64,000 nucleotides of DNA from positions 30,565-94,564 of the forward strand of contig DATKNW010000041.1 of NCBI GenBank assembly GCA_035541135.1. The letters run 5' to 3'. The translations under genes and the position numbers were made by a program. The stretch is from Verrucomicrobiia bacterium. Lineage in GTDB: Bacteria; Verrucomicrobiota; Verrucomicrobiia; Palsa-1439. Below the pieces are notes generated by a model. It saw only the letters and a list, made by a program, of their open reading frames with translations. It was not told the origin of the DNA and searched no databases. This document shows, piece after piece, positions 7,512 through 53,873 of this stretch (the first letter of the stretch is position 1; every line of letters begins with the position of its first letter).

Positions 7512-7940
7512 TTACGGTACCAGGACCCGCACACGATAGTACCTGGACGGTTCGTTGGTCACCCCGCCGCTGTCGACCATGTTGGTGACCACTCCCAGTC
7601 CGTTGCCCCCGCTCAAGATGTTGGTTTGACCGGTGCTGGTGAAGTTGTTCGAATAACTGCCGTCGCCTGCCCCAATCGTGAACTCCAGAACGTTTGTCCG
7701 CGAAGCGATTCCCGGCGACCACGTATTGTCGCCATTGGCACCGAGATAGGTCACCGTCACATTGCTGCCGGCGGATGTGATGCTGATGACGTGCACGTAT
7801 GCCGCCGTGTTGGTAGGATTGAAACCTGCCAGAAATTGGTTGGTGTTGCTCATCCCTTTGCCCAACGGATCGGCATTGGCCGCAGCCTGGGGACAGTTGG
7901 TGCAACCGAAGTATTGCAGTTGCCACGATTGGTAGGCTGT
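7512..7940 (-). repeat. conserved 3'-terminal gene segment encoding the shared C-terminal domain (copy 1 of 4)
   Basis: Encodes AYQSWQLQYFGCTNCPQAAANADPLGKGMSNTNQFLAGFNPTN...SRYYRVRVLVP. By eye it is about 85-90 percent nucleotide-identical to 12402..12830 and clearly related to 23321..23750 and 45689..46100. Confidence 0.8.
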
Positions 7941-12401: not shown

Positions 12402-12830
12402 CTACGGTACCAACACCCGCACACGATAATACCTCGAGGGTTCATTGGTCGCCCCGCCGCTGTCCACCATGTTCGTGACCACTCCCAGTCCGCCGCCTCC
12501 GCTCAAGATGTTGGTTTGACCGGTGCTGGCGAAGTTGTTCGAATAGCTGCCGTCGCCCGCGCCGGCGGTGAACTCCAAGACGTTCGTGCGCGAGGCGATT
12601 CCGGGCGACCACGTATTGTCGCCATTGGCACCGAGATAGGTCACCGTTACATTGGTACCGTCCGACGCGACGTCGACAATATACAGATACGCCGCGCCAT
12701 TGGTTGGATTGAACCCAGCCAGGAACTGGTTGGTGTTGCTCATCCCTTTGCCCAACGGATCCGCATTCGGACTCGCCTGAGAACAAGCGGTGCAGCCGAA
12801 ATACTGGAGCTGCCACGATTGAAATGCGCT
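12402..12830 (-). repeat. conserved 3'-terminal gene segment encoding the shared C-terminal domain (copy 2 of 4)
   Basis: Near-identical at nucleotide level to 7512..7940, including the 60-nt perfect block ccacgtattgtcgccattggcaccgagataggtcacc. Confidence 0.8.
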
Positions 12831-15800
12831 CAACGGCGTTGCGCTGACCTGAAAGGAGTTCGTGCTTTCGCCAAACGTATTCGTCGCAGTGACTACATAG
12901 TAATACGTCGTTCCGTCGCTGAGGCCGGTGTTGGTGAACACCACGCTGCTCACGCTGGCAATCGTCGCATACGACCCGCCGTTGATCGGGGAGCTTTTCA
13001 CGTTGTAGCCGGTGGCATTCGTCACCGCGGACCAACTCAAGGCGACCTGTGAATCGCCGGCGGCGGCCGTCAGGTTAGCTGGCGCCGCAGGGGGGGAACC
13101 GGGTGTGGCGCTGACCACGGTGGAATTGGAACTTTCGCCGGCCAGGTCTAGGGCCGAAACCACGTAGTAATACGTTGTCCCGTTGCTCAGACCCGTGTTG
13201 GTAAAGACCAAGCTCGTCGTGTTCGCAGCAATAATCGCATACGTGCCATTGCTGATTGTTGCACTCTTCACATTATAGCCGGTCGCGCCCGAACTGGCGG
13301 ACCAACTCAATGCCACCTGTTGGTTGCCACCAACGGCCGACAAGCCGGTGGGGGCCGCCGGCGCCGACCAACCCGGTGTGACGGTGACGTTATCGAACGT
13401 GGAAACGTCCAGTTGCGCGGTGTTACGCGAGCACACGCCCAACCCGGCGACATACGCGCTGGCCATGCTGAATGTCCCGGTCGTTCCCACCTGTGTCCAT
13501 GTGACGCCGTTGGAGGATATGAAACCGATGAATGAATTCCCGGATCGCTGGAGCTTCAACCACTGCGGCGGCGAGAGCACCGCCGGGCCGTTTGTCCAAT
13601 TCATGCTGCTCCCCGTGACGGTTCGCGTTGCCAAACGGCTGGTGGCGAGCTGCGTGTCGATGATCACCGCCGCCAACGTGGAATTGGCATTGGTCGTCTC
13701 GCGCATTATGATCCCCACTTTGTCCAGCGTGCCGCCATCCTGAATCGTGGCGACGCGGGCGACAATGGTGCAGTTGTTCGTTACGCTCATGTAGGCGAAA
13801 TTCATCGAATCGGCGGTCCCGCCGATGTCCGAGCCGGCGCCTTCGACCTTGAACGTGGTGCCGTCATAGCTGGCGCCGCCGGCCGTGCCGACGCCGTCGA
13901 TGTCCACATCCGACCATGGCGACGGCATCCCGGTGCCTGCGCCTGTCTCCATGGAATTGTAATCGCTCTCCCCGCACGAATTACTGCCCGAAACCACATA
14001 GAAGTAGTAGCCGTTCTGAACCACCGTCGAATCCGTATAGTTGGTGGTGGTGATGCCCGTGGCAATCGTCGTGTACGGTCCACCCGTGGTCGTGGAGCGT
14101 TTGACGGCGTAACTGGTCGATCCCGAGGATGCATTCCAGCTTACGGAAATGTTCGATGCCGTACTGCTGGACACAGCGAGCGAGAGTGGGGGTGTGGGAA
14201 CAGAGCAACTATTCGTCACCGAATCCAGGTACAACACGACGGTGGATTTCGGACCGACGTCGACCGGTGCGGTCATCACGGCTCCCGAGACAAGATCCGT
14301 GGCCGAGGTGAATCCGGATGGAACTTTCAACTGGTAGGTGTTGCTGGCGTCTCGATTGATACCGATGAGGTAGTTGCCGTACCGGCAAGCCCAGAACAAC
14401 GCTTTGCCGCGAAACGGCATATCGCTTGTCGCATAAGGGTCATTCGGTCCCAGCGGCAGCCGCTCACCCATGTAAGCCTGGGCCGGGTTGTCGGGCGGCA
14501 CGTAAAAGTTCTGCTCGGGTTTGTCCACGATATTCGGTCTCACGTAGAATGAGACGCTGGACGGGACCTGCGGAATGTTCTCGACCACGCCGTACAAATC
14601 ATAGTTCGTGGTGCTGTAGTAGAAGCGACCGAGGCCATTGACGCCTGTGCCGGTCTTGGCCTGCCAATATGTCTCCAGCCACAACCGGTTCGAGCCGTGC
14701 TTGACCGCCACAATGCCGTCGTCCTCGTCCGCCCAGGCAAAATCCGGCTGGCCCTCAGTCATCGGCAACCGAATGCCACTGTCGGTCGCGGCTTTTACCC
14801 CCGAATAATCGCTGAAGACGCCCATGACGTAACGGCCGTCGAAGCTGTTCGCCGCCAGACTGCTGCCGCTGTACCATCTGGTATCGTAGACCAGATTGGT
14901 GAAGTACTGATTGTCGTCGTTGATCATCTGTTTGGCATACCCGACCACGTTCGAGTCAAGCGTTGCCGCCGCAGCTTGCATCCCGTGCGACCACCCGGAG
15001 CTGTCGCCATAGGCGGGGAAATCGGCAAACTCGACATCCGACTCGTTGGCACCCCGCCAGGCAAGCAGACCGATGTCTTCCATCCAATGGTAGTAGTTGG
15101 TCACACTCCCGTGAACGAAGGTCCCCATGTTCGGACGGCGGAACGGCGCGCGCGCCTTGGCCATCTTGACTGCCTGGGTTTGGAACACTGAATTACTGGT
15201 CATCCCATAGAAACTGGCGGCAAAATACTGCATCTCGCCATACGAATTCCCCACGTACCCTTGCTCCCGTGACAGGCCCTTGGCCGTGACCTCCGTGTAG
15301 TTGGTGCCATACATTAAGGAGCTGCCGCCACCGGCCAAGTCGCTGCCCAGCCACGGCTGCAAGCCAATCGCTTCCAGAAGGTACCGCTGGGCGTTGGTCT
15401 CAGTGAAAGCATTCGCGTTCCCGAGATCCTCCAGCCCGCGATTGGCCTTGTAGATGTTCGCATTCGCGATCAATCCCTGGTTCGACAGGTACCAACTGTT
15501 CCGGTTGAGCCTCCCGTAATCGCGGCTGGCGACCAACATGGCGCCCCAAGCCTGCCGACGCGTCAGGCTGCCGCCGCCGCTATAATACACCGTCGCATCG
15601 ACGTTCGTGCCAATTTGGGGAAGCAGGAGATGAATGGCCCATCCCAGGGCCCCGAATCGCCCTCCCCAATTCTCGTTCCCACCGCCTGAACTGACGCTGG
15701 TGCTGGGATTGGCATAGTAACCTGACGCGAACGTGTCCAGCGCGGTAATGACCTGGCTCACGAGAGCGGAATTCTGATAGGCGGCGGTTAGATTGGAAAT

Positions 15801-16643
15801 GGAGTAGGCTTCCGCCAGGAGTTCGACGTCCGAACAGATCCAGTTGGTCACCGCTGTGCTCAATCGGCCACTCACATAACTGTTTACACCGGCCGTGAAC
15901 GTGCCCGAAGCCCCCAAGACCTGACTCTCTGTTGGCACCGAGGGCACGGTGGTGGTCGGCGCCACTCCTTGTGTTTCGCCGGTGGGGATCAGCAGCGGGT
16001 CGACGTGCGTGTAGGCCGCATAAATGGCGCGGCTGTTGGTGATCATGGCGAACTGGTAATTGCCACTCGGTGGTCCACCTGATCCGAGTGTATAAATCCG
16101 CCCGGCGGAAACGATTTCGACCGTCAAGTTCGTCCGGCCTTGCGTCATCCACAGCGGCAGAAGCGTGGTCGAATAGAAGAAACGCCCGGGCAACGGCGGG
16201 AAGCAAGCCGCGGCGTTCAGACCGATGTAATCACCCTCGTGTCGATAGCCGATTTGCCAGTTCGTTGTCGAGCCCGCGTGGAACTGGCTATCGGGAACAT
16301 ACAGGTACAGCCTCCCCATGTTGGAGTCCTGCTCGAGGACGCTGCTCGAGTCTTCCCCACCCCAAAGTTTTATCGAGACGTAATTCCGGCGGAACGAATC
16401 CACATTCATCGTGAAGGTCAGGTTGCCGCCATACACGCCGGAAGCGCTGCTGTTGCTGATGCAACGGCGCGCTGTCTGCCCCAACGCTCCGGTCAGCGAA
16501 AACGTGTTGTTGGCGACAAGCGAATGGCCGGCCTCGGAACTCGCGTTGCCAAAAACAATCGTGTCCGATTGTTGCGCCGGACATGGCACCAGCCACGCCC
16601 ATAGGCCACACCCGCACAATGCCATCCTGAGCACCGTCTTCAT
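12402..16643 (-). CDS. giant secreted multidomain surface protein with a putative glycan-degrading N-domain (paralog of 1531..3858), FN3, LamG-like, FN3 x2 and the conserved C-terminal domain
   Basis: ORF 12402..16700. The likely start is ATG at 16643 ([25 protein letters not shown], signal peptide, preceded by agcaagagaagggaacagaggt). N-domain matches 1531..3858. FN3 motifs ([32 protein letters not shown]). LamG-like domain ([15 protein letters not shown]). C-terminal [43 protein letters not shown]...[11 protein letters not shown]. Confidence 0.8.
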   Translation of the reverse strand: [1413 protein letters not shown]

Positions 16644-16677
16644 ACCTCTGTTCCCTTCTCTTGCTTGTGTTCTCACC

Positions 16678-17490
16678 CTAAAACTCTGGTGGCAATTCAT
16701 TGTTCACGTCGGCCTGCCGGATTTGTTCCAGCGCCGTCTCATTCAACGCCTTCGCATAGACGCGCAAATCGTCGATGCTGCCATTGAACGGCCGATGGTA
16801 TTTCGTTTGCATCGTGTTCCCGATCACGTCGGGTCGCTGGCTCCGGTCGCCGCGTTCGCCGAGGGCACCGACGGAAACGTTCCGCGTCTTACACAGCGCC
16901 TTTTGTACCCGGCCGGATTTGCCACCCTGATAAAAACACACCTCACTCGCTGACTTTTTCCAGACAACCGCGAGGAACACCCAGTCGTTCGGTTGCAGCC
17001 ACCCTGCGTATGGTCCGTCGTCCCCGCTTTCGAACCAATACAGCGTGCCTTTGGGGATATCCGTCGCCGCGACGCGGAGTACCCACGTGCCGTTCGTCTT
17101 GGCAATCAGGTACATCGACGCCAGATCGAACAACGACGCATCGAGCGCCTGCCGTTCGCCGGGTTTGTACCAGCAGGTGATTGTCATTTCCTCCAACCCA
17201 CGGACCGGCAACAACACGTTCACCAGGGCTACTGGTCCGGAGGCAGGGTCCACGAAGTTCGGCACTTCTCCGACATAGCACCTGTCCGCAGGCTGTCCCG
17301 AGACGCCCGAGCCGTCTGGGCCGTATTTCGCCCCGTCGCGCAGCAGCACCTGGTCGGCGGACTCGTTGAACCTTTCGGCGAACAACAGAGCGCTGACCTG
17401 TACTTTCACCGCCGCGCGCGCCGTCAGAGTCGTGGCTGAAACCGCGAAGACCGTCACGGCCCTCACAACAAACCATCGCAGCATTTTCAT
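16678..17490 (-). CDS. secreted LamG / concanavalin-A-like lectin domain protein
   Basis: ORF 16678..17697. The likely start is ATG at 17490 (MKMLRWFVVRAVTVFAVSATTLTARA signal peptide). That start overlaps the symporter stop as ATGA. LamG-type C-terminal motif PFNGSIDDLRVYAKALNETALEQI. Confidence 0.7.
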   Translation of the reverse strand: MKMLRWFVVRAVTVFAVSATTLTARAAVKVQVSALLFAERFNESADQVLLRDGAKYGPDGSGVSGQPADRCYVGEVPNFVDPASGPVALVNVLLPVRGLEEMTITCWYKPGERQALDASLFDLASMYLIAKTNGTWVLRVAATDIPKGTLYWFESGDDGPYAGWLQPNDWVFLAVVWKKSASEVCFYQGGKSGRVQKALCKTRNVSVGALGERGDRSQRPDVIGNTMQTKYHRPFNGSIDDLRVYAKALNETALEQIRQADVNNELPPEF

Positions 17491-19298
17491 GAAGTGGATC
17501 CTGCAACTCTGGTCGCTTCCAATGTGCCTGTGGTCGCTTCCACAGAAATAGTGTCTCGCTGTCGACGGCGGGAAATGCCGTACAGGATCGCTCCCACGCC
17601 GAAGATCGTACCGCCGCAAAACACGAAACACATTCGTCCGCGAAGGCTGTTGGGAATCAGTATCAGGAGCAGAATGAACGCACCGTACACCATGCACAGC
17701 CCGCCGAGCAGTCTGTAAATCGAAGTCTGCACACCTTCCTCGCCGTGTTTGTCCACGGGCGTGCGCAGGTTTCTAAAGAACATTTCGACGGAGTCTTTGT
17801 ATTCCTGGGGACTCGACTTGTAAAACAAGCTGGCGAAAAAATACCATCCAGTGCCGATGACCACGGTTCCGAAAGTGGTCGTCGCCAGCATCAGATAGGT
17901 TTTTTCGTCGGCGGACAAAGCCGTCTTCCAACCCATAAAATGCTGAAACATCTCCGGTTTGATGAACTGGCCAAGCAGAAACGAAGCCACGCCACCGATC
18001 AGCACCGTGCTCCATGCTGACCAACCGGGTGTGCGTTTATAGAACATGCCGAAAATCAACGGCAGCGCGATGGGCATGAGCAGGTTGGCGGCGAATTGGT
18101 TCAGCAAATCAAACAAACCGACCGTCCGGAACTTGTTCACCAGAAGCGCGACGATGATGATGATCACGCCGAACGCGAGCGTGCACAATTTGCCGGTGAC
18201 GAGCAGATGCTTTTCTGACGCATTGGATTTGAACAACGGTTTGTAAAGGCTGCGAACGAAAATACCGACGCCTTTGTTCAAACCCGCGTCCATGTTCGTC
18301 ACGCTTGCACCCAGCATGGCGCACAGCAGCAAACCCAGCAGCCCTTGCGGCATCACGTCCATCGATACCGCCACGAACGCCGCCTCGTGCGGTTGCCTCA
18401 ACAACGGGTATTCCGCCGCCAGATTTGGGTGCAGGATCGTCGCCGCCATCGACGGGATGAACCAGATGAACGGCCCGATGAACGAGCCGATCAAAGGAAT
18501 CAGCACCATCCGTCGCGCGTCCTTGTCACTACGCGCCATCAGATACATGGTGGAGTTCTCGATGTTGTTCGTGTCGGAAAACTTGAACCAGATCATCACC
18601 ACCGCCCACATGGCGATAAGTGGCATCCGGGCCAGCTCTGTCCAATCAAAGTGCGCGCTCGGAACTTTCTCGATCAGTCCGCTCAACCCGCCAACATCCG
18701 GTCGCACCAGCACCAACACCGCCGTCACAATCGCGATCGTCAGCATGAGAAACATCTGCACAAAATCGCTCGCCAGTACCGCCCAGGCGCCGCCCGCAAA
18801 TGCCACCAGAGTCACCACGATTCCCAACACGATCAGCACGGTGTTCATGTCCACATGAAATACCGACGCCATGAATACCCCGATGGCGTTCAGACCGGCA
18901 CCCGCGAAAAACAATCGCACCGGAACCATTACCCAGGTGTAGAATTGCTCCGAGAACGGCCCGTAACGCAGCCGCACCGCTTCGATCCACGTGATCACGC
19001 GCATTCGGCGGAAGCGCACACACGTGGCGATCATCAGGATTGCCAGCGCGATAACCGAAGCCCAATACACCACCAGCACCAATGTGCCCGTCTCATACAC
19101 CTTGCCCGCCGCACCCGTGAACGTCCACGCGCTGAAAGTCGCAATCCACGCTGACGTTCCAGTGATCCACCACGGCATCGCCCCGCCACACCGGAAATAA
19201 TCCGACGTGTCCTTGCTTAATCGGCGGAAGATCACTCCGATGGCCAGGATGAACACGAGGTAAAACCCGATGATAAAATAATCGTAACGGGAGATCAT
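17487..19298 (-). CDS. sodium:solute symporter (SSS/SLC5 family) transporter
   Basis: 603 aa with 13-14 predicted TM helices. N-terminus MISRYDYFIIGFYLVFILAIGVIFRRLSKDTSDYFRCGGAMPWWITGTSAWIATFSAWTF is typical of the SSS family. Confidence 0.85.
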   Translation of the reverse strand: MISRYDYFIIGFYLVFILAIGVIFRRLSKDTSDYFRCGGAMPWWITGTSAWIATFSAWTFTGAAGKVYETGTLVLVVYWASVIALAILMIATCVRFRRMRVITWIEAVRLRYGPFSEQFYTWVMVPVRLFFAGAGLNAIGVFMASVFHVDMNTVLIVLGIVVTLVAFAGGAWAVLASDFVQMFLMLTIAIVTAVLVLVRPDVGGLSGLIEKVPSAHFDWTELARMPLIAMWAVVMIWFKFSDTNNIENSTMYLMARSDKDARRMVLIPLIGSFIGPFIWFIPSMAATILHPNLAAEYPLLRQPHEAAFVAVSMDVMPQGLLGLLLCAMLGASVTNMDAGLNKGVGIFVRSLYKPLFKSNASEKHLLVTGKLCTLAFGVIIIIVALLVNKFRTVGLFDLLNQFAANLLMPIALPLIFGMFYKRTPGWSAWSTVLIGGVASFLLGQFIKPEMFQHFMGWKTALSADEKTYLMLATTTFGTVVIGTGWYFFASLFYKSSPQEYKDSVEMFFRNLRTPVDKHGEEGVQTSIYRLLGGLCMVYGAFILLLILIPNSLRGRMCFVFCGGTIFGVGAILYGISRRRQRDTISVEATTGTLEATRVAGSTS

Positions 19299-19323
19299 CG
19301 ACTCATGCCTGATATTGCCATCC

Positions 19324-19956
19324 CTAGGGTGTTAAAGCCGCGGCTGTTTCGGGGGTGACCACCTGATAATTGAAATCGAACCACTCGCGCGGCGTTTTTG
19401 GATTCGCCGGGGCGTCGGGCGCACGTGTCGTGCGAGGGATGATGGCCAGATCAACAATTCTCGCCTCCATGAGCCGTTTGATTTCCTGATCATGATCGCC
19501 GTTCGACGCAACGACTACCAGTCTGGAGTTTCCTTTGGACACCCGGTCGGCCTTCATGGCGGGTACTCCAATGAGCGACACCACGGCATCCACGTCGGGA
19601 TGGCTCTCCAAGATCCGCGCATACACATCCCCCGGCAGGGACAACTGCGAGTCATCCGTCAATGGAACCAACTCGGTGCCCACCACGGTGAGTTTTCCCG
19701 CCCGTCTGACCGATTGTCCGAAGATCTGCCGGAGTTTCATCGTTTGTTCGCACATGGCGCAATCTGCCGCCGCGACCACAACAATTCTGCCGTGATTCCC
19801 CAACAACTTCCCGGTCTGCTCGACCGCCGCGTCCCCGACTCCCTGCACCATCGAGTCCCCGACCGTGATCGGCTGTCGCTGCGTCTGCACCATCATCACA
19901 ATCGCCACCGCAAGCATCAGGCCCACAACCACCCCGATCAATTTCTGGTTACTCAT
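19324..19956 (-). CDS. membrane-anchored periplasmic CxxC protein, thioredoxin-fold-like (inferred); paralog of 21331..21936
   Basis: 210 aa. N-terminal TM (LIGVVVGLMLAVAIVMMV). Beta-strand-CxxC-helix pattern RIVVVAAADCAMCEQTMKLRQIF. A later V-P loop (SLIGVPA) could be the cis-Pro loop. It is encoded directly downstream of a pseudopilin gene. Confidence 0.6.
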   Translation of the reverse strand: MSNQKLIGVVVGLMLAVAIVMMVQTQRQPITVGDSMVQGVGDAAVEQTGKLLGNHGRIVVVAAADCAMCEQTMKLRQIFGQSVRRAGKLTVVGTELVPLTDDSQLSLPGDVYARILESHPDVDAVVSLIGVPAMKADRVSKGNSRLVVVASNGDHDQEIKRLMEARIVDLAIIPRTTRAPDAPANPKTPREWFDFNYQVVTPETAAALTP

Positions 19957-20022
19957 AATCTAGTCCATGCCGCGGGTTTCTGTCGGGTCAAATGTTGAAA
20001 GATGGTCAACCTGATCCGGTCA

Positions 20023-20748
20023 TCAATCACCCGGGGTGATTGTCCACATTCCTTTGGGGCTGATGAGCGTGCCGCTGCCGATCGTCTGGATCGGCCTCAA
20101 TGCCTCCACGTGGCCATCCGCAAACAGATAGTTCGATATCGACTTGTTCATATGCAACTCGCCATTCCCCGAGGCCTGGTACCGATACGCTGGGGACGCG
20201 AGTTCCGTGCATTGACCGCCGCTCTGCCAATTATTGAACTGGCTGCGTTCCGTGATGTAGATGGTTCCTGAAGGATCCGGGACATCCGAGCTGAGCTTCT
20301 TGAATTGGGTGAAGAACCCGGTCGGGCCACCATATACAGGAGCCCACTCGGACATGATTGAGTACGACCGGCGCTTTGCGCCACTGGTACAGCCCGAGTT
20401 GGAAATATCGAGGCGCAGCGTGTCTGAAGGGCACGTAAACACGCCACGTCCTCTCGGCGCCGCCATCTTGCTGATTTTTTCCGACCCCATGTATCCTGAT
20501 AGGTATTCGTCAAAAGTGACGGCACAACTATTATAGTTGTACGAGGTGGGCAGGTAATCGTTCCAGTCGTTCGCGTACATGTAGGCCGCCACGCCCATCT
20601 GCTTCAGATTGCTCGCACACGCCGCCATCCGTCCCTTCTCTCGCGCCTGACCCAGCGCTGGTAAGAGCATCGCCGCCAGAATCCCGATGATGGCAATGAC
20701 GACCAGCAATTCGATCAACGTAAACCCTTGCTTACCCCTTCTCGTCAT
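20023..20748 (-). CDS. prepilin-type N-terminal cleavage/methylation domain protein with H-X9-DG (DUF1559) C-terminal domain (pseudopilin-like)
   Basis: ORF 20023..21006. The likely start is ATG at 20748 ([32 protein letters not shown]). C-terminal [12 protein letters not shown] is the H-X9-DG motif. The mature part has five Cys. Confidence 0.8.
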
Positions 20749-21149
20749 TCTCCCGTTGATTCCCTGCCGCACGACCATCCAGCCCGATGTCCCTTCGCTC
20801 TTGGCCCCGTGGACCGTGGGTTTGTTGCTCCGAGCCAGCCAACAATCCGCATACGAGAAATGGTCAAACTGTGATCTTCGCAAGTTCATCACGTTGAAAA
20901 AAGTGTTGGTTTCGTCGGCGCTCAGACCTGATTCAGCGTGCGGCTTTGCTCGTTCGTCCGGTTTATCCCAATAGCTCTGGCGTACGGGTGGCGCAATGCT
21001 TGACAATCCACATCTGGCGCACAGGAATAGTCAGCGAGTACAATCCCTTTTTGCATGGCGACCGTCGTCCAGTTCGGAGGCAAGCATTTCCAACTTACTG
21101 CTGAAACAGAGCTTATCCATCCCGAAGTGTCAGCACAAGGCCGACTCCT

Positions 21150-21163
21150 TGCATACTGATGCA
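21150..21163. promoter_or_regulatory. palindromic motif TGCATACTGATGCA (candidate operator), about 400 bp upstream of pseudopilin 20023..20748
   Basis: Perfect inverted repeat TGCAT-N4-ATGCA. The same motif, or a 1-2 mismatch variant, lies at 22886, 30789, 32020 and 48608, always in intergenic promoter regions of this locus. Confidence 0.35.
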
Positions 21164-21330
21164 CCCATCGCGCATCCCCAGACTCAAATCAAGTCGGCAT
21201 CCTATCATTCAGTATCGGCAAGAACCCTTGCACCCTGGATCGCGCCTGATCGTCACGCACTTCTGCTTCACCACCATGGCACCGGTGTGATCGCTTCGAG
21301 GAAGGACAACCATCACCGCAACACGATTTC

Positions 21331-21936
21331 TCAGGGCGTGACCAACTGATAGTTCGATTGGAACCATTCGGCTGGCGTCGTCGGGTTTTGCGGGGCGCCG
21401 GGCGGGCGCGTCGTCAAGGGTACAATGGCGGCATCCACCAGTCGATGATCCAACATGTCACGTGCCTCCTTGTCGTGATCGCCGTCGGTAACAATCGCCA
21501 GCACCTTGACAGCCCGATTGGCAACAGGTTCGGTTCCCGGCGCGGGAAAACCCATCAGGGACACAATGACACCCGCATCCGCGTGATCTCGCAATACTTG
21601 AGCATACACGTCTGCCGACAGGTGAATCTGACTCTCGCTGATAATATTAACGGTTACGGTTGCCACCGTATGCACCCCCTTCTGGCGGGCAATCTCTCGA
21701 AAGGCAGCTTTCAGCTTTTTCGTTTGATTGCAAGCTTCGCAATCCGAAGGTTGAACGACGACAACGCTTGCCCGGTTCGCCGCCAGCTTCCCGACTTCCT
21801 GCACAGCGGCTTCACCCACCCCTTGCATCAATTTGTCAGCAAATGACATCGGCGGTTCATGCCATTTTACGAGCAACAACATCGACCCCAGAATCGCGAT
21901 GGCCGCTACGAAGCCCATGGCCACTTGCTTGTTCAT
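21331..21936 (-). CDS. membrane-anchored periplasmic CxxC protein, thioredoxin-fold-like (inferred); paralog of 19324..19956
   Basis: 201 aa. N-terminal TM (MGFVAAIAILGSMLLLV). CxxC block SVVVVQPSDCEACNQTKKLKAAF. Collinear with 19324..19956 throughout, including ...DGDHD...IVDLAIIP...PAEWF.NYQ.VTP. Confidence 0.6.
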   Translation of the reverse strand: MNKQVAMGFVAAIAILGSMLLLVKWHEPPMSFADKLMQGVGEAAVQEVGKLAANRASVVVVQPSDCEACNQTKKLKAAFREIARQKGVHTVATVTVNIISESQIHLSADVYAQVLRDHADAGVIVSLMGFPAPGTEPVANRAVKVLAIVTDGDHDKEARDMLDHRLVDAAIVPLTTRPPGAPQNPTTPAEWFQSNYQLVTP

Positions 21937-21998
21937 GCTCTCCTTGCTTGTCGAGGCTGAATTTGGTCGCCGAGGTCAGAGCTCATGTTAGATCGGCC

Positions 21999-22772
21999 TC
22001 ACTTCTTGCTTGGGTTGACGACCCACAATCCCTTTGGAGCGGCCAAGGTGCCGGAACCGATCGTCGCCAGTGCTGGCAAGGCCTCGACATGACCATCACA
22101 AAACAGGAAGTTGTTCAATCCCAAGTGGCGGTTTGCCAGGCCGTTGCAACTGTTGATCTCCGCCCCCGACCAGTCGCCCTGATAGCAGGGACCCGAAGTC
22201 TGGTCACGCTCCGTAATCAGGATCGTGCTGCTGGGTTGTGGGATATCGCCTATTTTATAATTGTACTGACCATACCCATTGAACACATTGGCTCCAATGG
22301 GGTCATCCAAAGAAAATGTCTTGCTGGCCGTACCCACGCTATTGATCGCATAGGACCTCGGCAACTTATTGATACCGACTGACCCGCAAACACACAAGGC
22401 GCCATTCTTTGTGGGGCTCTTGTCGCTTGGGCATACGAGCGTCGGGCGTCGACTGGTGTACAATCCGCCACTACTGGTGACGCCCGTGTTGCCTTGTGCG
22501 ACACCCAAATAGGTGGCCACCCAGCGGTCCCACGCCCAGCATGAGCCGACTTGAACGCTCAGACGGTCATTCCAATCCCCCGCATATAGAAACTCGGCAA
22601 CCCCGATCTGTTTTAGATTGGAGACACAGAGAGCACTCTTGCCTTTTTCCCTCGCCTTCGCCAGAGCCGGCAACAACATCGAGGCCAAGATGCCGATAAT
22701 CGCGATGACCACCAGCAGCTCGATCAATGTGAACCCATCTCCGAGCAAAATCCGGACAAAGTTCCTCTTCAT
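21999..22772 (-). CDS. prepilin-type N-terminal cleavage/methylation domain protein with H-X9-DG (DUF1559) C-terminal domain (pseudopilin-like)
   Basis: ORF 21999..22874. The likely start is ATG at 22772 ([37 protein letters not shown]). C-terminal [12 protein letters not shown]. Eight Cys. Confidence 0.8.
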
Positions 22773-22885: not shown

Positions 22886-22899
22886 TGCATACTGATACA
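22886..22899. promoter_or_regulatory. palindromic motif variant TGCATACTGATACA, 114 bp upstream of pseudopilin 21999..22772
   Basis: One mismatch to TGCATACTGATGCA. Intergenic. Confidence 0.3.
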
Positions 22900-23320: not shown

Positions 23321-23750
23321 TTACGGGAGCAGCACGCGGACACGATAGAACCGTGAGGGTTTGTTCGTCGCGCCGCCGCTGTCCACCATGTTGGTGACCG
23401 CTCCCAGCCCGGTTCCGCCACTGAGGATATTGGTCTGACCAGTGCTCACGAAATTGTTCGTGTAGCTGCCGTTGGCCGTGCCTGTCGTAAACTCCAATAC
23501 GTTCGTGCGCGACGCGACACCCGGTGACCAGGTACTGTCACCGCTGGCGCCCAGATAAGTCACCTTGACGTCCGCGGTGTTCGTCTTGGCGACGCTGATG
23601 ATATGCAGATTCGCCGTGCTGTTGGTCGGGTTGAAACCCGCCAGGAACTCATTGGTGTTGTTCATGCCATCGCCGTCCGGATCAGCCGTACCGGCCGCGC
23701 TCGCGCCGCCGCCAGGGAAGTAGTGGGCCTTCCACGCGGTGTATGAATCC
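23321..23750 (-). repeat. conserved 3'-terminal gene segment encoding the shared C-terminal domain (copy 3 of 4)
   Basis: About 75 percent nucleotide identity to copies 1 and 2 by eye. The protein is collinear through the TSP3-like DPDGDGM..N.EFLAGFNPTN block and the terminal FYRVRVL.P. Confidence 0.7.
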
Positions 23751-26700
23751 GTCACTCCGGTGACGTGCAGGATCACCGACCCGGCGACGCTCGTATCAAT
23801 CGTGTACGTCAAGCTGGGGTTCGGCTTCGTCCCCACGAGCAGACCGTTGTTTACCAACGTCCCCGTGTACGTGATCAGCGTGTAGTCGCCAATGCCAAAC
23901 CCGCCGGCATCGGAGAGGTTAACGATTCCGCCCAACGTGAGGTTACCATGGCCTTCCAGTCGATCACAGGTGCCCGGACTGCCCAAGTCCCAGGCCATGA
24001 TTGACAGATTCCCTAATACGACGTCATTGCTGGCGACGATCGTACCAATCGAAAAGCCCGGCGAGAGCGCGCCGTTCACCGTCAGCGTGCCGATAATCGA
24101 ACCGACGCCGCGCAGTGTGGCGTTGTTGTTGATGACCAGACCATCATTAAACGCGTGGAAACCGGTCCCGCCCGCGGCCAATTCCAAGCTTGCCGCATCA
24201 ACGCCATCGCCCACCGTCAACGTCCCGCTACCGGCGTCGACCGTCGTGCCGCCCGTGTTGAGCGTGCCCGCGTTAAACACAATGGGGTTCCCCGCGATCG
24301 CGCGCATGCCGCCGGCTGCCACCTTGCCACCGGTGATAGCCAGGATGTTGTTCGTCGTTGCCGCGCCGTTCGGGCCAACCCACAAGAAACCGACGTTGGT
24401 GACGATGCCGCCGGAGCTGACCTGGAGCACGTCATTCGTGCAGGCCTGATCGCCGATGGCCACGTTCGTTGCACCGCCAGCGTCCCACGTCGCGCCATTG
24501 CCCGCGACTACCATGGTGTTGCTGGTTCCACCACCGCGGCCAACTTCCCAGTAGGAGTTGATCGCGCTGGTAACTGACGGCGCGCCGGTAAACAACTTGC
24601 CGCCGTTTGTGACGATCAGGACGTTCCCCACAGCCTCCGGGCCGTTGCCCCAAATGATTTCGCCGGCGTTGGTGACAATGCCGCCGCTGTTGATGATCAT
24701 GGTGCCATTGACGCCAGGGGACTGCAGGCGAGCGTCGCCCAAATTCACCGTTGCGCCAGCCAACACCCATACCGTGTTATTGGTGGCGTCACCGACGCCC
24801 GTTGCGCCGTAGCCAATTGTGAAGGCGCCGTTGGTCCCGGCATTCCCATTGATACCCATATTCAGCACCGCGTTGGTGATGACCATATTGCAGAACGTAC
24901 TTCCGACACGTCCGCCGACATCCACGTTGCCACCGAAAGTATTTGGTGAAGAAATGCCGACACCGCCGGAGTTGGGACCGTCATCAAACGTTCCTACGAC
25001 GACCGAGGCGGGCGCTCCCGCGCTGCCGATCTGCAAGAGGTTGCTGTAGCAACCACTGCCTGCACCGACCATGAGTTCGTGGGCGACAACCAAGCTGGCG
25101 CCATTGTTGACAATCAACGAGCAATTCGTGTTGGCCCCGTTATCGGCAATATACACCGAATTGACATTCGTGACGGCTGCGCCCGCGGCAATCGTTACAG
25201 TTTCGCCCTGACAGGTGCCGCCGGGCCCCTGGCCAGGCCGCAGGAAACCGCCGCCGCAATCGACCACGGTGTTGGGATCAGTGATTAGTGCCATGTTATT
25301 GGCGTTGAGGCTGTCCCCGCCGCCGCCAGGGCTACCGTTGCCGACGTGGAGGGTCACACAGAACAACGTGCTGCCGCCCGCGACAACCAACGAGCCATTC
25401 GTTGTCGCACCGCTCTGGCCGACCACCACTTCGCCCATGCAGAACACCTTGGCACCATTGGTAATGATCAGTTGCTCATTGAGGCTCGGCACGTTGTCCC
25501 CGATAAAGATCCGGGCCACGTTGGTCAGCACGCCGCCGCTGGTCACCACCATCATGTCGTTCGTGTTAGCCGCCACAGCGGTGCTGCCACTCGAGAAAAA
25601 GCCAACTTCAAAATCATTGGATCCGAGATCCCACACCGAGCCACTACCGGTGAGCGTCCCGATGTTGTAAGCGTCCCCGGTGCCCCAGCCAATACCGCTG
25701 CCCTGACCGGAGCCGGTATTGGGATTCGTGAGGTACACCTGGCTGCCATTGGTAATGATCAGTGTGTTGTTATTCGCGCCAGCGCCACAGCGACCCGCTA
25801 TCAGTTTGCCCGCGTAGACAACGACCGGCGCGCCATTGCTGCCGACCTGGAACAGGTTGTTACTGCTGATCGCGCCCGCGCCAATGCCGATGTCTCCATC
25901 GACGAACAACTGGGCGCCATTGTTAAGAATCAGGCTGTTGTTGGCACCCGGTCCGTTGTCGCCCGCATAGATTCGCGCGACGTTTGTGACGATCGCACCA
26001 TCCTTGATCAGCAGCGTGTTATTTGTTGCGCAGCCAGAGGGCAGCCCCGCCCCAAAACCGACTCTCAAATCATTGGAGCCAAGGTCCCACGTTGTGCCAG
26101 CGCCCGTGACGATACCCAGATTGTTGAGCGCGCCGCCACCGTTGGCGAATCCGATGCCCGACTGATCTGATACCGCGCCACTACCCGTCGTGTACACCGC
26201 GCTGCCGTTCGTGATGATCAGCGTGTTCAGGCCGGCACTCGGCCCGAGGCCGACCTGGATCGGACCGGTCCCGATCGTAACAGGGGCACCGGCGCCGCCA
26301 ACCTGAAACAGGTTGTTGGACGCACCCTGACCCGAGCCGACCCCAATCATACGGTATGTAAAAAGCTGGCCGCCGTTGTTGACGACGACGTTGTTGCTGT
26401 AACCAGGGCCATTGTCGGCAATGAACAATCGGTTCACATTGGTCACCGCGCCGCCCGATGTAATCAGCAGCGTATTGCTGCGGGTATTGCCCGCCGTTAT
26501 CAACCCGAATCCGACGCGCAGATCGTTGGAGCCAAGATCCCATATGGAACCATTGCCGGTAACAACCCCGACATTGTTGGATGAGAAGCTGCCGGTTCCG
26601 ATGCCCGCCACGCCGGTGGCCAGAAGCCCACCGTTGGTGACCAGCAACTGACAGGACGACCCGCCATACCCAACCGTAAGTGTGCCAAAGTTGGGGACGT

Positions 26701-27271
26701 TGGAAAACACGCCGCTGCCGCTGATCGTCAGCGTACCAAGACCAACATTGGATCCGAGATTGGTGCCGAGCACCGCGCATGTCGTCGCCACCGTCCCATT
26801 CGTCAGGAAATAACTCCCACGACTACCGAAGCCCAACACAAACGCCGGGGTGTTGGTCGCCGTGGCAGTAATATAATTGGTGGCCACGAGCGTCCCGCTG
26901 GCCTGATACACGGTCACCGGGGCTGAGGACGCGGGAGGGTAGCCAATGATGAACGCAGGCGCGCCTGACGTTGGTGCCAGTGTCCAAGTCTGAGCCCGGA
27001 TATCCAGGGTCACAGTCCCGCCGTTCTTAAACCAGTTGCTCGAGAGAACCGCTGGCGCGGACGGAAAACTAACCGTATAGGCCGTGTTGTTGGTAAAAAA
27101 AGTGCCGTCCCCGGTTGCCGGAGCGACCCCGGTGCTCCAGTTACCGCCGTCGTTGAAGTTCCCGCTATTGACGTTCGTCCATGTCAACACGTTGGCTCGC
27201 GCCACCACGGCCCCGCCAACAATCACGGCCGTCACCAACAAAACTCCCCGCCACAAAGCTGATCTATTCAT
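23321..27271 (-). CDS. giant secreted beta-strand-repeat protein (autotransporter-associated beta-strand-repeat-like passenger) ending in the conserved C-terminal domain
   Basis: ORF 23321..27448. The likely start is ATG at 27271 (MNRSALWRGVLLVTAVIVGGAVVARA, preceded by ggagcggtaaggatc). N-terminal LTWTNVNSGNFNDGGNW module. Many ~75-aa repeats of the type GSGSVWDLGSNDLRVGF...NTLLITSGGAVTNV..L.IADNGPG.NNSL..NNGGQLF. C-terminus SYTAWKAHYFPGGGASAAGTADPDGDGMNNTNEFLAGFNPTN...SRFYRVRVLLP. Confidence 0.75.
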   Translation of the reverse strand: MNRSALWRGVLLVTAVIVGGAVVARANVLTWTNVNSGNFNDGGNWSTGVAPATGDGTFFTNNTAYTVSFPSAPAVLSSNWFKNGGTVTLDIRAQTWTLAPTSGAPAFIIGYPPASSAPVTVYQASGTLVATNYITATATNTPAFVLGFGSRGSYFLTNGTVATTCAVLGTNLGSNVGLGTLTISGSGVFSNVPNFGTLTVGYGGSSCQLLVTNGGLLATGVAGIGTGSFSSNNVGVVTGNGSIWDLGSNDLRVGFGLITAGNTRSNTLLITSGGAVTNVNRLFIADNGPGYSNNVVVNNGGQLFTYRMIGVGSGQGASNNLFQVGGAGAPVTIGTGPIQVGLGPSAGLNTLIITNGSAVYTTGSGAVSDQSGIGFANGGGALNNLGIVTGAGTTWDLGSNDLRVGFGAGLPSGCATNNTLLIKDGAIVTNVARIYAGDNGPGANNSLILNNGAQLFVDGDIGIGAGAISSNNLFQVGSNGAPVVVYAGKLIAGRCGAGANNNTLIITNGSQVYLTNPNTGSGQGSGIGWGTGDAYNIGTLTGSGSVWDLGSNDFEVGFFSSGSTAVAANTNDMMVVTSGGVLTNVARIFIGDNVPSLNEQLIITNGAKVFCMGEVVVGQSGATTNGSLVVAGGSTLFCVTLHVGNGSPGGGGDSLNANNMALITDPNTVVDCGGGFLRPGQGPGGTCQGETVTIAAGAAVTNVNSVYIADNGANTNCSLIVNNGASLVVAHELMVGAGSGCYSNLLQIGSAGAPASVVVGTFDDGPNSGGVGISSPNTFGGNVDVGGRVGSTFCNMVITNAVLNMGINGNAGTNGAFTIGYGATGVGDATNNTVWVLAGATVNLGDARLQSPGVNGTMIINSGGIVTNAGEIIWGNGPEAVGNVLIVTNGGKLFTGAPSVTSAINSYWEVGRGGGTSNTMVVAGNGATWDAGGATNVAIGDQACTNDVLQVSSGGIVTNVGFLWVGPNGAATTNNILAITGGKVAAGGMRAIAGNPIVFNAGTLNTGGTTVDAGSGTLTVGDGVDAASLELAAGGTGFHAFNDGLVINNNATLRGVGSIIGTLTVNGALSPGFSIGTIVASNDVVLGNLSIMAWDLGSPGTCDRLEGHGNLTLGGIVNLSDAGGFGIGDYTLITYTGTLVNNGLLVGTKPNPSLTYTIDTSVAGSVILHVTGVTDSYTAWKAHYFPGGGASAAGTADPDGDGMNNTNEFLAGFNPTNSTANLHIISVAKTNTADVKVTYLGASGDSTWSPGVASRTNVLEFTTGTANGSYTNNFVSTGQTNILSGGTGLGAVTNMVDSGGATNKPSRFYRVRVLLP

Positions 27272-27451
27272 GATCCTTACCGCTCCCAACTCAGTTGTTG
27301 TAGTTGTTTCAGAAATCTGTCGTCCCACCTCATCGCCCAGCCCTCGGAGCCACTCCGGTACACAGCCTGCCTGCTTCCCGCCTGTTCCACAGCACCATTG
27401 CTGCCAGCCGGCCGTCAACACGGCCGGCTGGCAGCCAACCAAACACAATGC

Positions 27452-30788: not shown

Positions 30789-30802
30789 TGCATACTGATG
30801 CA
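30789..30802. promoter_or_regulatory. palindromic motif ATGCATACTGATGCAT (16-bp form) in the divergent region between the PEP-CTERM gene and the LacI gene
   Basis: Extended 16-bp form (30788..30803) is two self-palindromic ATGCAT hexamers separated by ACTG. It lies ~140 bp upstream of 27452..30649 and ~25-60 bp upstream of the LacI start. Confidence 0.4.
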
Positions 30803-30825: not shown

Positions 30826-31905
30826 TTGGCGTATTCTGCTCTCGTTTTTGACAGAGTACGTATGGAACAGACGCCTCCAAAGCCGCGTATTAGTTTGCAC
30901 GATATTGCCCGGCGACTGAACGTAAGTCAGCCGACCGTCTCGCGCGCGTTGAAAGACGATCCCCGCATTTCCATCGCCACGCGTGAACGGGTGCAACGCG
31001 TCGCCCGCGAGATGGGGTACCAGCCCGATCCGATGCTCACGGCACTCGCCCATTACCGCCGCGGAAAAACTCAAACGCCCGTCAGTTCTGCGCTTGCCTG
31101 GATCAACCGCTGGACAAAACCGGAGCAACTCCGTCGACACCAGGAATTCGAGTTATACTGGAAAGGCGCGACGCAAGAAGCTGAACGTTGCGGGTATCGG
31201 CTTGAGGAGTTTGTCTGCGATGAGCGCTTGCCACTGCCCAGGCTGGAGAAAATTCTTCTGACCCGCAATATCCGTGGCATTCTGATTCCGCCGCATCTTT
31301 CCTGCCCCGACTGGGGCGATTTTGATTGGGCCCAGTTTTGCGTAGTCCGATTCGGTCATTCCATCGACACACCTCGCGCCCACCTGGTCACCAGCGACCA
31401 ACTGACCGACAGTTTGATGGCCTTTCAGCACATCCTGAAAATGGGATACCGGCGGATCGGCTTTGTAGCCGCCGACCAACCGCATATCCGATTCAAGGCC
31501 GGCTATTTATTTGCCCAGTTAACTCTCGATCTGAAACAACGGCTTCCGTTGCTGGATTTGACAGACCCCAACTCCGAGGAGGGCAAGCGGCGACTAGCCT
31601 CGTGGTTGAAGCAGGTCCAGCCAGACGCGATTCTTACGGATGTCGCCCCTTTGCGAGATATGCTCTCCAAACTTCGTTGGCGCGTGCCCGAGGACGTTGG
31701 ACTGGCCGCCCTGAGCGTGCTGGATGGAAACGCCGACGCCGGAATTTATCAGAATTCAGCCGAGATTGGGCGGGCGGCGGTGCAATTGGTCATTTCGTTG
31801 ATCCACCACAATGAACGCGGCGTTCCCGAGGTTTGCCGCGAACTACTTGTCGAAGGTCAATGGGTCGATGGTCAAACGCTGCCAACACGTAATGGCAAAC
31901 GCTGA
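30826..31905 (+). CDS. LacI family transcriptional regulator
   Basis: N-terminal HTH ISLHDIARRLNVSQPTVSRALKDDPRISIATRERVQRVAREMGYQPD followed by a periplasmic-binding-protein-like sugar-sensor domain. Alternative start ATG at 30862 (MEQTPPKP). Confidence 0.85.
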   Translation: MAYSALVFDRVRMEQTPPKPRISLHDIARRLNVSQPTVSRALKDDPRISIATRERVQRVAREMGYQPDPMLTALAHYRRGKTQTPVSSALAWINRWTKPEQLRRHQEFELYWKGATQEAERCGYRLEEFVCDERLPLPRLEKILLTRNIRGILIPPHLSCPDWGDFDWAQFCVVRFGHSIDTPRAHLVTSDQLTDSLMAFQHILKMGYRRIGFVAADQPHIRFKAGYLFAQLTLDLKQRLPLLDLTDPNSEEGKRRLASWLKQVQPDAILTDVAPLRDMLSKLRWRVPEDVGLAALSVLDGNADAGIYQNSAEIGRAAVQLVISLIHHNERGVPEVCRELLVEGQWVDGQTLPTRNGKR

Positions 31906-32019
31906 TGCACCGATCGCAGCTTATACGCAACCACTTACACGATATTATGGCGCCATATATACAGGTGACTTCGACAAACTCGTTGGCCACGTCGCATAAC
32001 TTGAGCGCGGCCCTGATGG

Positions 32020-32033
32020 TTATACTGATGCAT
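32020..32033. promoter_or_regulatory. degenerate copy of the palindromic motif (GTTATACTGATGCA) upstream of the heparinase/GH operon
   Basis: Right arm and spacer are conserved and the left arm is degenerate. The site is ~315 bp upstream of ATG 32349. The downstream region is locally AT-richer (tattatgcgtactccatcatgaatcc). Confidence 0.25.
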
Positions 32034-53797: not shown

Positions 53798-53873
53798 AAC
53801 GATGCAGAGCATACCAAATTTGTCACGGATTTGTCACGAGAAAACCGAGGAGTACAGACCTACAGCGGAAAAG

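Follow-up and report, generated by a model that had tools for sequence, protein, structure and literature searches.

Tandem DUF1559/H-X9-DG pseudopilin genes paired with predicted membrane-anchored half sugar-binding proteins in a glycan-utilisation locus of a Verrucomicrobiia bacterium

Two pseudopilin–small protein modules in tandem

Within the window, the whole 64-kb stretch of DNA that we analysed, six minus-strand open reading frames listed in an earlier note are all present, each running from an ATG to one stop codon. In minus-strand order they encode a pseudopilin (pilin2, 21999..22772, 257 aa), a small membrane-anchored protein (small2, 21331..21936, 201 aa), a second pseudopilin (pilin1, 20023..20748, 241 aa), a second small protein (small1, 19324..19956, 210 aa), an SSS/SSF Na+/solute symporter (17487..19298, 603 aa) and a secreted LamG/concanavalin-like protein (16678..17490; Pfam Laminin_G_3 43.7 bits, above the cut-off). 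Intergenic gaps measure 62 bp between pilin2 and small2, 582 bp between small2 and pilin1, 66 bp between pilin1 and small1 and 25 bp between small1 and the symporter gene, whose stop overlaps the LamG start in an ATGA that can be read directly in the sequence. The symporter matches PF00474 (SSF) over all 406 model positions (1-406; 105.3 bits, cut-off 22.8). As previously proposed, the two small proteins are paralogs (41% identical, E 7e-59), and the two pilins are 41% identical as well (E 1e-53). A conserved module of two genes, for a DUF1559/H-X9-DG pseudopilin and then a small protein of ~210 aa, thus occurs twice in tandem.

Both modules lie in an operon-like string with the Na+/solute symporter, the LamG protein and giant polysaccharide-lyase-like proteins. 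The suggested glycan-utilisation setting is borne out by alginate-lyase-like, heparinase II/III, GH3, GH97 and GH127 proteins, a LacI regulator and a PEP-CTERM protein around the pairs. Four giant proteins of the window have a C-terminal domain in common, which could be a sorting tag.

A 14-bp operator-like palindrome precedes both pilin genes and the LacI gene of the locus. One copy, TGCATACTGATACA (22886..22899), is found 113 bp upstream of the pilin2 start and another, TGCATACTGATGCA (21150..21163), inside the 582-bp gap, ~400 bp upstream of the pilin1 start. The same palindrome occurs at 30789..30802, 23 bp upstream of the plus-strand LacI-family gene (30826..31905; Pfam LacI 52.5 bits, Peripla_BP_3 39.3 bits), where the motif begins 37 bp before the listed TTG start. 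The window holds 5 copies of the motif CATACTGATRCA against 0.3 expected. The LacI-family regulator is a candidate repressor acting on these palindromes.

Few paralog families of Planctomycetota and Verrucomicrobiota are as large as the DUF1559/H-X9-DG pseudopilins, for which, to our knowledge, no function is established. Published genomes carry 67-68 DUF1559 pilins each, and two DUF1559/H-X9-DG pseudopilins are essential in Planctopirus. Both window pilins have a prepilin-type N-terminal signal with the cleavage/methylation motif G-F-T-L-I-E (PF07963 N_methyl, 38.7 bits for pilin1 and 30.2 bits for pilin2, cut-off 21.2; TIGR02532, both above cut-off). The signal is joined to a DUF1559/SBP_bac_10 head (PF07596, 35.2 bits for pilin1 and 32.4 bits for pilin2, cut-off 23.3), in which we found no detectable PBP (periplasmic binding protein) similarity. 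Scores for the C-terminal H-X9-DG model TIGR04294 (16.0 and 18.3 bits) fall just below its cut-off of 19. Both pilins had been described as H-X9-DG proteins; pilin2 has the motif literally, whereas pilin1 has an H-X11-DG variant. The mature pilins are indeed rich in cysteine, with 5 and 8 residues. C44 and C106 (pilin1 numbering) are invariant in 19/19 aligned partner pilins, whether or not the partner small protein has a CxxC motif, so part of this richness is common to partner pilins.

Fold of the small protein and its CxxC motif

The small proteins belong to an unnamed family of ~210-aa proteins, for which the family profile retrieved 497 cluster representatives, with small2 as its second-best match; members here come from Verrucomicrobiota and Kiritimatiellia. 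A high-confidence structure model of small1 predicts an N-terminal helix (~residues 3-25) followed by a soluble domain of ~170 aa, an all-parallel beta/alpha lobe with ~six strands. Its parallel sheet flanked by helices is the lobe fold of type-I PBPs, and every top structural match is either a type-I sugar-binding protein or a LacI core. Low-rmsd alignments matched 145-165 residues on targets of 270-320 aa, and when the family HMM is aligned with a complete SBP, the region matched is residues 118-260. The model thus does not show the two hinge-joined lobes that enclose ligand. For Peripla_BP_4, small1 scores 13.2 bits against a Pfam cut-off of 35.1, and 61 of 139 family members reach E<=0.01 (best 1.3e-7), which argues for homology rather than membership. 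By this model, from which the fold of small2 was also inferred, the small protein is an N-terminal transmembrane (TM) helix joined to one lobe of a type-I (ribose/arabinose-binding-protein-like) periplasmic sugar-binding protein, a natural "half-PBP".

The closest folds are the type-I sugar-binding proteins of CUT2 ABC transporters (RbsB, AraP, GanP, XylFII; Peripla_BP_4) and LacI-family ligand cores. Compared with the former, the small protein has one lobe (~170 aa versus ~270-300) and no hinge, and it is held by an uncleaved TM helix where they carry a signal peptide or lipobox. Its gene directly follows a pseudopilin gene and mostly lacks an ABC permease/ATPase partner; no ABC genes are found among the genes of the window.

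The earlier note had read the small protein as a periplasmic thiol-disulfide oxidoreductase paired with its Cys-rich pseudopilin. Such an enzyme, membrane-anchored and of thioredoxin fold like TlpA or ResA, would oxidise or isomerise the pilin. Part of that reading stands. Both paralogs carry CxxC at residues 66-69 (nt 19750-19761 in small1, 21730-21741 in small2), as do the three closest database homologs, and the model contains the strand-CxxC-helix element locally (strand 56-63, C66/C69, helix from 70). An N-terminal anchor followed by this element is also seen in TlpA, ResA and CcmG/DsbE, as in the sub-clade of the window. The cysteines of the partner pilins and a sub-threshold Redoxin match of small2 (13.6 bits, cut-off 26.6) point in the same direction. 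Globally, however, the predicted fold is a PBP lobe and not that of TlpA, ResA or CcmG/DsbE. No thioredoxin-fold protein is among the top structural matches, and the "V-P loop" taken for a thioredoxin cis-Pro loop corresponds to a G-x-P that the family conserves behind strand 3. Small1 has no match to Pfam Thioredoxin, Redoxin or AhpC-TSA, and no thioredoxin or redoxin family appears among the Pfam matches of the 139 members at E<=0.01.

The note had named lack of conservation of the Cys pair as grounds for refutation, and the pair is complete in only 5/139 aligned homologs; 96% of the family lack CxxC, and 52/139 members have no cysteine at all. Cys-free members pair with pilins equally well (for example, P0006/L054 and P0019/L056), and the two invariant pilin cysteines are kept regardless of the partner's CxxC. 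CxxC lies in the loop that follows strand 1 and is limited to the window sub-clade, so it is not the catalytic motif of the family. The PBP-like fold and the rarity of the Cys pair rule against a thioredoxin-fold oxidoreductase, which we regard as very improbable here and as largely refuted at the family level. A clade-specific redox role of CxxC on a non-thioredoxin scaffold is possible.

Conservation of the pairing in other genomes

The proposal that every pseudopilin comes with a small membrane-anchored protein of its own fared well in other genomes, where the pairing is strongly conserved. A co-oriented DUF1559/H-X9-DG pseudopilin gene lies directly upstream of the small-family gene in 22 of 31 evaluable loci, against a background of ~1% per kb. 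Database look-ups gave the same arrangement in 8/10 evaluable cases and an adjacent but divergent pilin in the remaining 2. Sampling by the TPREWFD pattern is biased, and some of the loci it retrieved are related to one another. Partner pilins and small proteins co-diverge (Mantel r 0.64), and the gaps between their genes are tight or overlapping in relatives. About 30% of sampled members have no adjacent pilin, and some adjoin ABC-transport genes; in L002 the small-family gene comes after those for an SBP and an ABC ATPase. Our literature search found no description of a pseudopilin paired with a half sugar-binding protein.

Close relatives repeat the operon orders LacI-pilin-small-SSS symporter or pilin-small-lyase/GH. 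In these relatives the SSS symporter immediately follows the pair, in line with the suggested placement of pairs in glycan-utilisation operons with a symporter, and the window symporter is 50% identical to the one that follows the pair in L047. Adjacent secondary transporters are confined to the clade near the window and a few others, and more distant pilin-linked loci have heterogeneous neighbours.

The small protein could instead be an independent sensor or regulator, possibly a membrane-tethered, cytoplasmic LacI-core-like domain that modulates the transporter or another partner, with pilin adjacency reflecting operon history. The LacI-family cores among the structural matches and the members unlinked to pilins are consistent with this. 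Topology is ambiguous: the charge bias flanking the TM helix gives no clear direction, the C-terminal flank often being more positive in members with a short N-terminus. Single cysteines outnumber pairs in the family and odd counts are common, unlike in a typical periplasmic protein. However, the N-terminus is too short for signalling across the membrane, and the enrichment of upstream pilins over background, the inheritance of pairs as units and the tight or overlapping gaps are hard to explain without functional coupling. We judge a sensor or regulator improbable.

Strict adjacency and co-divergence also fit the main rival, a pilin-specific assembly or docking factor. At the inner membrane, such a factor would engage its cognate H-X9-DG pseudopilin and either pass it on to a type II secretion/type IV pilus machine used in common or prevent its assembly; the PBP-like lobe would serve as a scaffold that binds protein and not sugar. 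In that case the pseudopilins may act as adaptors, specific to cargo or substrate, in the secretion of the co-encoded giant lyases, and the C-terminal domain common to four giant proteins of the window could be a sorting tag. In size, predicted overall layout (short N-terminus, one TM helix, juxtamembrane helix, alpha/beta domain) and genetic association with (pseudo)pilins, the small protein resembles PilN/PilO/GspM, although these have a cytoplasmic N-terminus and a periplasmic domain and the side of the membrane is ambiguous for the small protein. Its juxtamembrane helix (G-x-V-x-A-E-E-T-A-K-L-L) is conserved in the family. In L010, L012, L020, L035 and L043 the small protein recurs in a triple with two pilins, one of them GspG-like (PF08334) and the other H-X9-DG. 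In one family member, P0129, the plain anchor is replaced by a genuine prepilin signal, but it is a single 762-bp contig and its nearest relatives have the ordinary anchor. For a comparable locus of Verruconatronum alginivorum, type II secretion of alginases has been proposed (PMC13274419).

PilN/PilO/GspM proteins, however, have a ferredoxin-like periplasmic domain, a fold that differs from the modelled lobe of the small protein, and are encoded with machinery genes, not one-to-one with individual pilins. No PilN/PilO/GspM-type match to the small proteins was found in Pfam, NCBIfam or the listed top structural matches, and the 64-kb window has no secretion or pilus machinery genes. The small family is also modest (497 cluster representatives) beside the number of DUF1559 pilins in each published genome, although the former is not a per-genome count; if the contrast holds, a minority of pilins have a small partner and there is no general assembly requirement. 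Members without an adjacent pilin, some of them beside ABC-transport genes, also argue against an assembly role, which we consider somewhat unlikely.

A possible substrate-recognition module

The explanation that we favour, at a probability of roughly 0.35, is a pilin-tethered half-PBP module that recognises substrate and feeds the co-encoded symporter. The pilin-small pair would be the substrate-recognition unit of a glycan-utilisation operon. The half-PBP would be held at the inner-membrane surface beside its cognate pseudopilin, whose own N-terminal helix would also lie in the inner membrane before assembly. A sugar-binding cleft would be completed by a second half-PBP copy or paralog, or against the pilin head. 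Oligosaccharides released by the co-encoded lyases would be captured there and handed to the adjacent secondary transporter, much as TRAP and TTT systems use a binding protein and a carrier.

Several observations run against the module. A single lobe cannot close on ligand alone, and the pilin head lacks PBP similarity. The limited adjacency of secondary transporters, the members without an adjacent pilin, the ambiguous charge bias and the excess of single cysteines over pairs also fit it poorly. That natural half-PBPs pair with one another or with the head of a cognate DUF1559 pilin, and with the pilin make up a new binding-protein-dependent secondary (SSS/MFS) uptake system, seems to us doubtful.

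Such an uptake system, if real, would give part of the DUF1559/H-X9-DG expansion in PVC bacteria its first concrete function, as substrate-specific receptors of glycan-utilisation operons. The half-PBP partner is encoded alongside secondary sugar transporters, LacI regulators and polysaccharide lyases/hydrolases. A conserved, co-evolving, one-to-one partner with a sugar-binding-protein lobe makes DUF1559 function approachable by experiment (binding, complex, uptake), and for annotation, an unnamed family of ~500 cluster representatives gains a fold, a context and a name.

Until now, half-PBPs have figured as a hypothetical stage in evolution and as laboratory-made proteins; the small protein would be a natural example of the single-lobe PBP postulated by evolutionary models of the fold. 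Engineered single-lobe halves of Thermotoga ribose-binding protein fold alone and bind ligand only as a two-lobe assembly (Michel, Romero-Romero & Hocker 2023; PMC10601554; PMC9815098), a mechanistic precedent for a working half-PBP. Those halves are laboratory models of a hypothetical ancestor, whereas the predicted half-PBP is natural, membrane-anchored, widespread in PVC bacteria and pilin-linked. TRAP DctPQM and TTT TctABC follow the same proposed principle, an extracytoplasmic binding protein feeding a neighbouring secondary carrier; in both, the binding proteins are type-II PBPs with both lobes and the carriers lie outside the SSS family, and we claim no homology.

The V. alginivorum locus, an alginate-induced pseudopilin/SSF-symporter/LamG/LacI/polysaccharide-lyase operon (PMC13274419), is of the same kind as the window locus and comes from the same phylum. 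Its published description mentions no half-PBP partner; the pilin gene is followed by one for a 298-aa hypothetical protein grouped by the authors with PL29, and the symporter gene is divergently oriented (PMC13274419). Its PulG-like pseudopilin, which has 67 paralogs in the genome, is strongly induced on alginate (PMC13274419).

Fold of the small proteins

The window's two DUF1559/H-X9-DG pseudopilins (pilin1 and pilin2) and their membrane-anchored partners (small1 and small2) lie on the minus strand with a Na+/solute symporter (SSS) and a concanavalin-like secreted protein (LamG). As in the earlier note, the six reading frames, each running from an ATG to its only stop, are pilin2 (21999-22772), small2 (21331-21936), pilin1 (20023-20748), small1 (19324-19956), SSS (17487-19298) and LamG (16678-17490). 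Pfam assigns N_methyl and SBP_bac_10/DUF1559 to both pilins, SSF to the symporter and Laminin_G_3 to LamG. Small1 and small2, which are 41% identical (E 7e-59), are assigned to no family by Pfam or NCBIfam, where their sub-threshold matches are to Peripla_BP_4 and the LacI-family (GntR) ligand domain. Small1 exactly matches a 'hypothetical protein' in a Verrucomicrobiae MAG.

Word-indexed homolog searches returned the query alone or a handful of relatives, and an exhaustive HMMER search was required. With a profile of the two paralogs, this search recovered 497 cluster representatives at E<=1e-3, of which 207 also pass E<=1e-10. Almost all are 200-270 aa long and aligned over their full length. 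A PDB sequence search with the same profile gave noise only. AlphaFold run on the two paralogs alone was uninformative (pLDDT 51) and was replaced by a run with a 139-sequence alignment, which produced a confident model (pLDDT 93.7, pTM 0.85) with a TM helix (3-25), a second helix (32-51) and then repeated strand-helix units. Conserved features of the family include the juxtamembrane helix A-E-E-T-A-K-L-L, G56, F79, D-A-I-V-S-F-x-G-x-P after strand 3, A-I-x-P-R after strand 5 and the C-terminal motif P-x-T-P-R-E-W-F-D..Y-Q-V-V-T-P. S127-F-x-G130-x-P132, R175 and T188-P-R-E-W-F-D194 belong to the conserved surface.

At E<=0.01 in Pfam, 61 of the 139 aligned members match Peripla_BP_4 and none matches a thioredoxin or redoxin family. 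The family HMM also matches residues 118-260 of a genuine Peripla_BP_4 protein in one retrieved locus, L002. Together with the fold, the Peripla_BP_4 matches and the absence of thioredoxin matches indicate that the small proteins are one lobe of a type-I periplasmic sugar-binding protein (PBP) on a membrane anchor. These half-PBPs are homologous to PBPs, yet they fall outside the PBP family as defined because they have one lobe and no hinge and score under the Pfam cut-off.

The earlier note had read the small proteins as thioredoxin-fold CxxC oxidoreductases serving Cys-rich pseudopilins. The mature pilins do carry 5 and 8 cysteines, and C44 and C106 are invariant across all 19 aligned partner pilins. 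The local strand-CxxC-helix element also exists (strand 56-63, C66/C69, helix from 70), but it is not part of a thioredoxin fold; the model shows a Rossmann-like lobe with the CxxC in its first crossover loop. The motif is kept in only 5/139 homologs, which are the two window proteins and their three closest matches, and 52/139 members are cysteine-free. Fold, cysteine conservation and Pfam therefore rule out the thioredoxin or TlpA reading, and an oxidoreductase role is very improbable, even as a clade-specific extra. A Cys2-His-Asp metal site using the GDHD motif was also rejected, as the His is lost in the closest CxxC homologs.

An N-terminal extension of ~50 aa is present in 17 of the 139 members (for example P0031, P0047 and P0053; L006 7842-8687 and L007 5870-6700). 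It consists of a conserved amphipathic or hydrophobic helix (MSILKMLAKAIWDLI…) and a Lys/Arg-rich linker, followed by the TM anchor.

Coupling to pseudopilins

Pattern-based retrieval yielded 12 genome loci, from Verrucomicrobiota, Limisphaerales, Kiritimatiellia and one 'PVC group' MAG, and 34 metagenome loci. We classified the neighbours of family members with a pilin HMM built on 19 partner pilins. Of 31 evaluable cases, counted without redundancy, 22 have a co-oriented pilin that ends no more than a few hundred bp upstream, and usually tens of bp (binomial p ~2e-37, for loci that are not independent). By the same HMM, the background away from family genes is 2 pilins per 146 kb of retrieved loci, and a pilin-motif scan of the remaining ~58 kb of the window found no further pilin. 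Exact-sequence look-ups in pre-called, Pfam-annotated genes (n=12) left 10 evaluable cases, since the contigs of P0009 and P0129 are too short for the adjacency count. A pilin is immediately upstream and co-oriented in eight of these (P0003, P0004, P0005, P0007, P0006, P0019, P0026 and P0154), and in P0011 and P0022 the neighbouring pilin is divergent. Thus, the family is enriched next to H-X9-DG pilins in other genomes, and the earlier proposal of a dedicated partner for each pseudopilin, in a glycan-uptake context, is borne out. Members without an adjacent pilin make up ~30% of the sample.

Pilin1 and pilin2 are, like their partners, 41% identical (E 1e-53), and tandem pilin-small pairs also occur in L020, L035 and L043. 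Pairwise distances among pilins and among partners are correlated (Mantel r 0.64, p 2e-4), and both genes of paralogous pairs have the same nearest neighbour (win1 with L047, L020a with L043b). These data indicate that the pair is inherited and duplicated as a unit. As PBP-like proteins of one lobe on a membrane anchor, the half-PBPs form a widespread, unnamed family that is genetically coupled to DUF1559/H-X9-DG pseudopilins. As for the motif that names these pilins, pilin2 has the canonical H-X9-DG, but pilin1 has H-X11-DG (residues ~199-213); both score slightly below the TIGR04294 cut-off.

Variations on the pair were also seen. L060 (2742-5143) has the order small-pilin-small, where the gene that precedes the pilin (250 aa) is an apparent half-PBP member, judged by eye from conserved family motifs, so that this pilin appears to be flanked by two paralogs. 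In distant members a GspG-like (PF08334) pilin is often upstream of the H-X9-DG pilin. A three-gene unit of GspG-like pseudopilin, larger H-X9-DG pseudopilin (~370 aa) and half-PBP recurs in L010 (6007-8537), L012 (6048-8534), L020 (1813-4067), L035 (3023-5790) and L043 (3749-6571). L002 (5535-8639) provides a family context without a pilin: a full-length Peripla_BP_4 SBP, an ABC ATPase and a half-PBP member are consecutive genes, a permease gene is absent, and a convergent hybrid histidine kinase comes next.

From 1.5 to 51 kb, the window is a glycan-utilisation locus with alginate-lyase-like giants, heparinase II/III, GH3, GH97, GH127, a LacI regulator and a PEP-CTERM protein. A glycan and transporter context is established for the clade around the window, where close relatives have the same arrangement. 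L047/L048 encode, in this order, a PATR giant, pilin, small protein, SSF symporter (with 50% identity to that of the window) and a homolog of the window 1531-3858 protein, and L054 encodes LacI, pilin, small protein and SSF in order. In L050-L052, pilin and small protein are followed by lyase-like giants with 64-66% identity to the window 7512-12380 and 12402-16700 proteins. The pair comes before GH3, MFS_2 and GH8/GH115 in L056, after GH43 in L057 and beside a LacY-like symporter in L058. Distant members have mixed neighbours (melibiase, PL8, GDSL lipases and others). Linkage to SSS or LamG is not family-wide, having been found in the clade around the window alone.

Possible function of the pair

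The literature searched refers to DUF1559 solely as a large family of paralogs whose function is unknown, and 'H-X9-DG' gave no relevant result. We found no description of a pilin with a single-lobe PBP-like protein in the literature available. The pairing opens a concrete experimental route to the function of this very large orphan family. According to a 2026 study of Verruconatronum alginivorum, alginate induces an operon that encodes a PulG-like pseudopilin (with 67 paralogs in the genome), an SSF symporter, LamG, LacI, a hydroxyacid dehydrogenase, PL29/PL39 and heparinase II/III-type lyases (PMC13274419). By this gene content, it is a locus of the same kind as the window's. This pseudopilin is one of the proteins with the highest induction, and type II secretion is the route suggested by the authors for the alginases; they do not describe a half-PBP partner (PMC13274419).

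Our preferred model, tentatively held at a probability of about 0.35, is that half-PBP and pseudopilin bind substrate and feed the adjacent secondary transporter. The half-PBP would be located beside its pseudopilin at the inner-membrane surface, with its binding cleft completed by self-pairing, by pairing with a paralog or against the pilin head. Lyase products would then be handed by the half-PBP to the transporter. In engineered halves of ribose-binding protein, single lobes fold, and ribose is bound only after heterodimerisation (PMC10601554).

The main alternative is that the small protein is a docking or assembly factor specific to its pilin, and that the pseudopilins may be adaptors for secretion of the co-encoded giants. 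Its layout can be likened to that of PilO/GspM, but the fold differs, and we consider this role only slightly less probable than the preferred model. In hhalign comparisons of the pilin and small families, the TM helices alone align, and matches of the pilin in a PDB profile search are confined to its N-terminal helices. The idea that the pilin head is a hidden PBP lobe thus found no support, and this lack of PBP similarity weakens substrate binding and docking alike. So does the membrane topology, which is ambiguous by positive-inside and Cys-parity analyses.

In P0129 (L059 94-762), the plain TM anchor is replaced by a genuine prepilin signal (…NQEGFTLIEMIAVLV…), suggesting a pilin whose head is the half-PBP lobe. 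If genuine, this protein would put the domain on the periplasmic side. Its source is one contig of 762 bp. The proteins most closely related to it, P0154 and P0155 (62-63% identity), have an ordinary anchor and follow a DUF1559 pilin. For these reasons, P0129 was reduced from Rosetta-stone evidence to a hint.

Regulation and organisation of the window locus

The motif CATACTGATRCA has 5 copies in the window, compared to 0.3 expected. The full 14-mer palindrome TGCATACTGATGCA occurs at three sites: 113 bp upstream of pilin2 (22886-22899), in the 582-bp gap between small2 and pilin1, ~400 bp upstream of the latter (21150-21163), and 23 bp upstream of the LacI-family gene at 30826 (30789-30802). 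The heparinase II/III gene has a near-copy upstream of it (~32019-32032), and another is at ~51460-51473. The palindrome is probably a LacI operator defining a regulon, to which we infer that both pilin-small pairs belong.

An Rfam search of the 582-bp gap found no riboswitch or other RNA. The remaining gaps are short (pilin2-small2 62 bp, pilin1-small1 66 bp, small1-SSS 25 bp), and an ATGA overlap joins SSS and LamG. Terminator and promoter scans performed no better than on shuffled sequence. The short gaps and lack of convincing terminators are compatible with the predicted co-transcription of pilin1, small1, SSS and LamG.

Four giant secreted proteins of otherwise different architectures (7512-12380, 12402-16700, 23321-27448 and 45689-48364, all minus strand) share a C-terminal domain of ~120-130 aa, encoded by the last ~130 codons of each. 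The domain ends ...SR(Y/F)YR(V/I)R(V/L)(L)VP, with 49-86% identity across the last 130 residues, and may be a tag that all four use for sorting, anchoring or secretion. The C-terminus of a fifth giant (27452-30649) is PEP-CTERM instead. The glycan locus is bordered on the right by a phage-type integrase gene (52574-53812, minus strand) that adjoins a tRNA gene (53877-53947, minus strand), with housekeeping genes beyond. All 50 kb of the glycan-utilisation region may have integrated as a genomic island.
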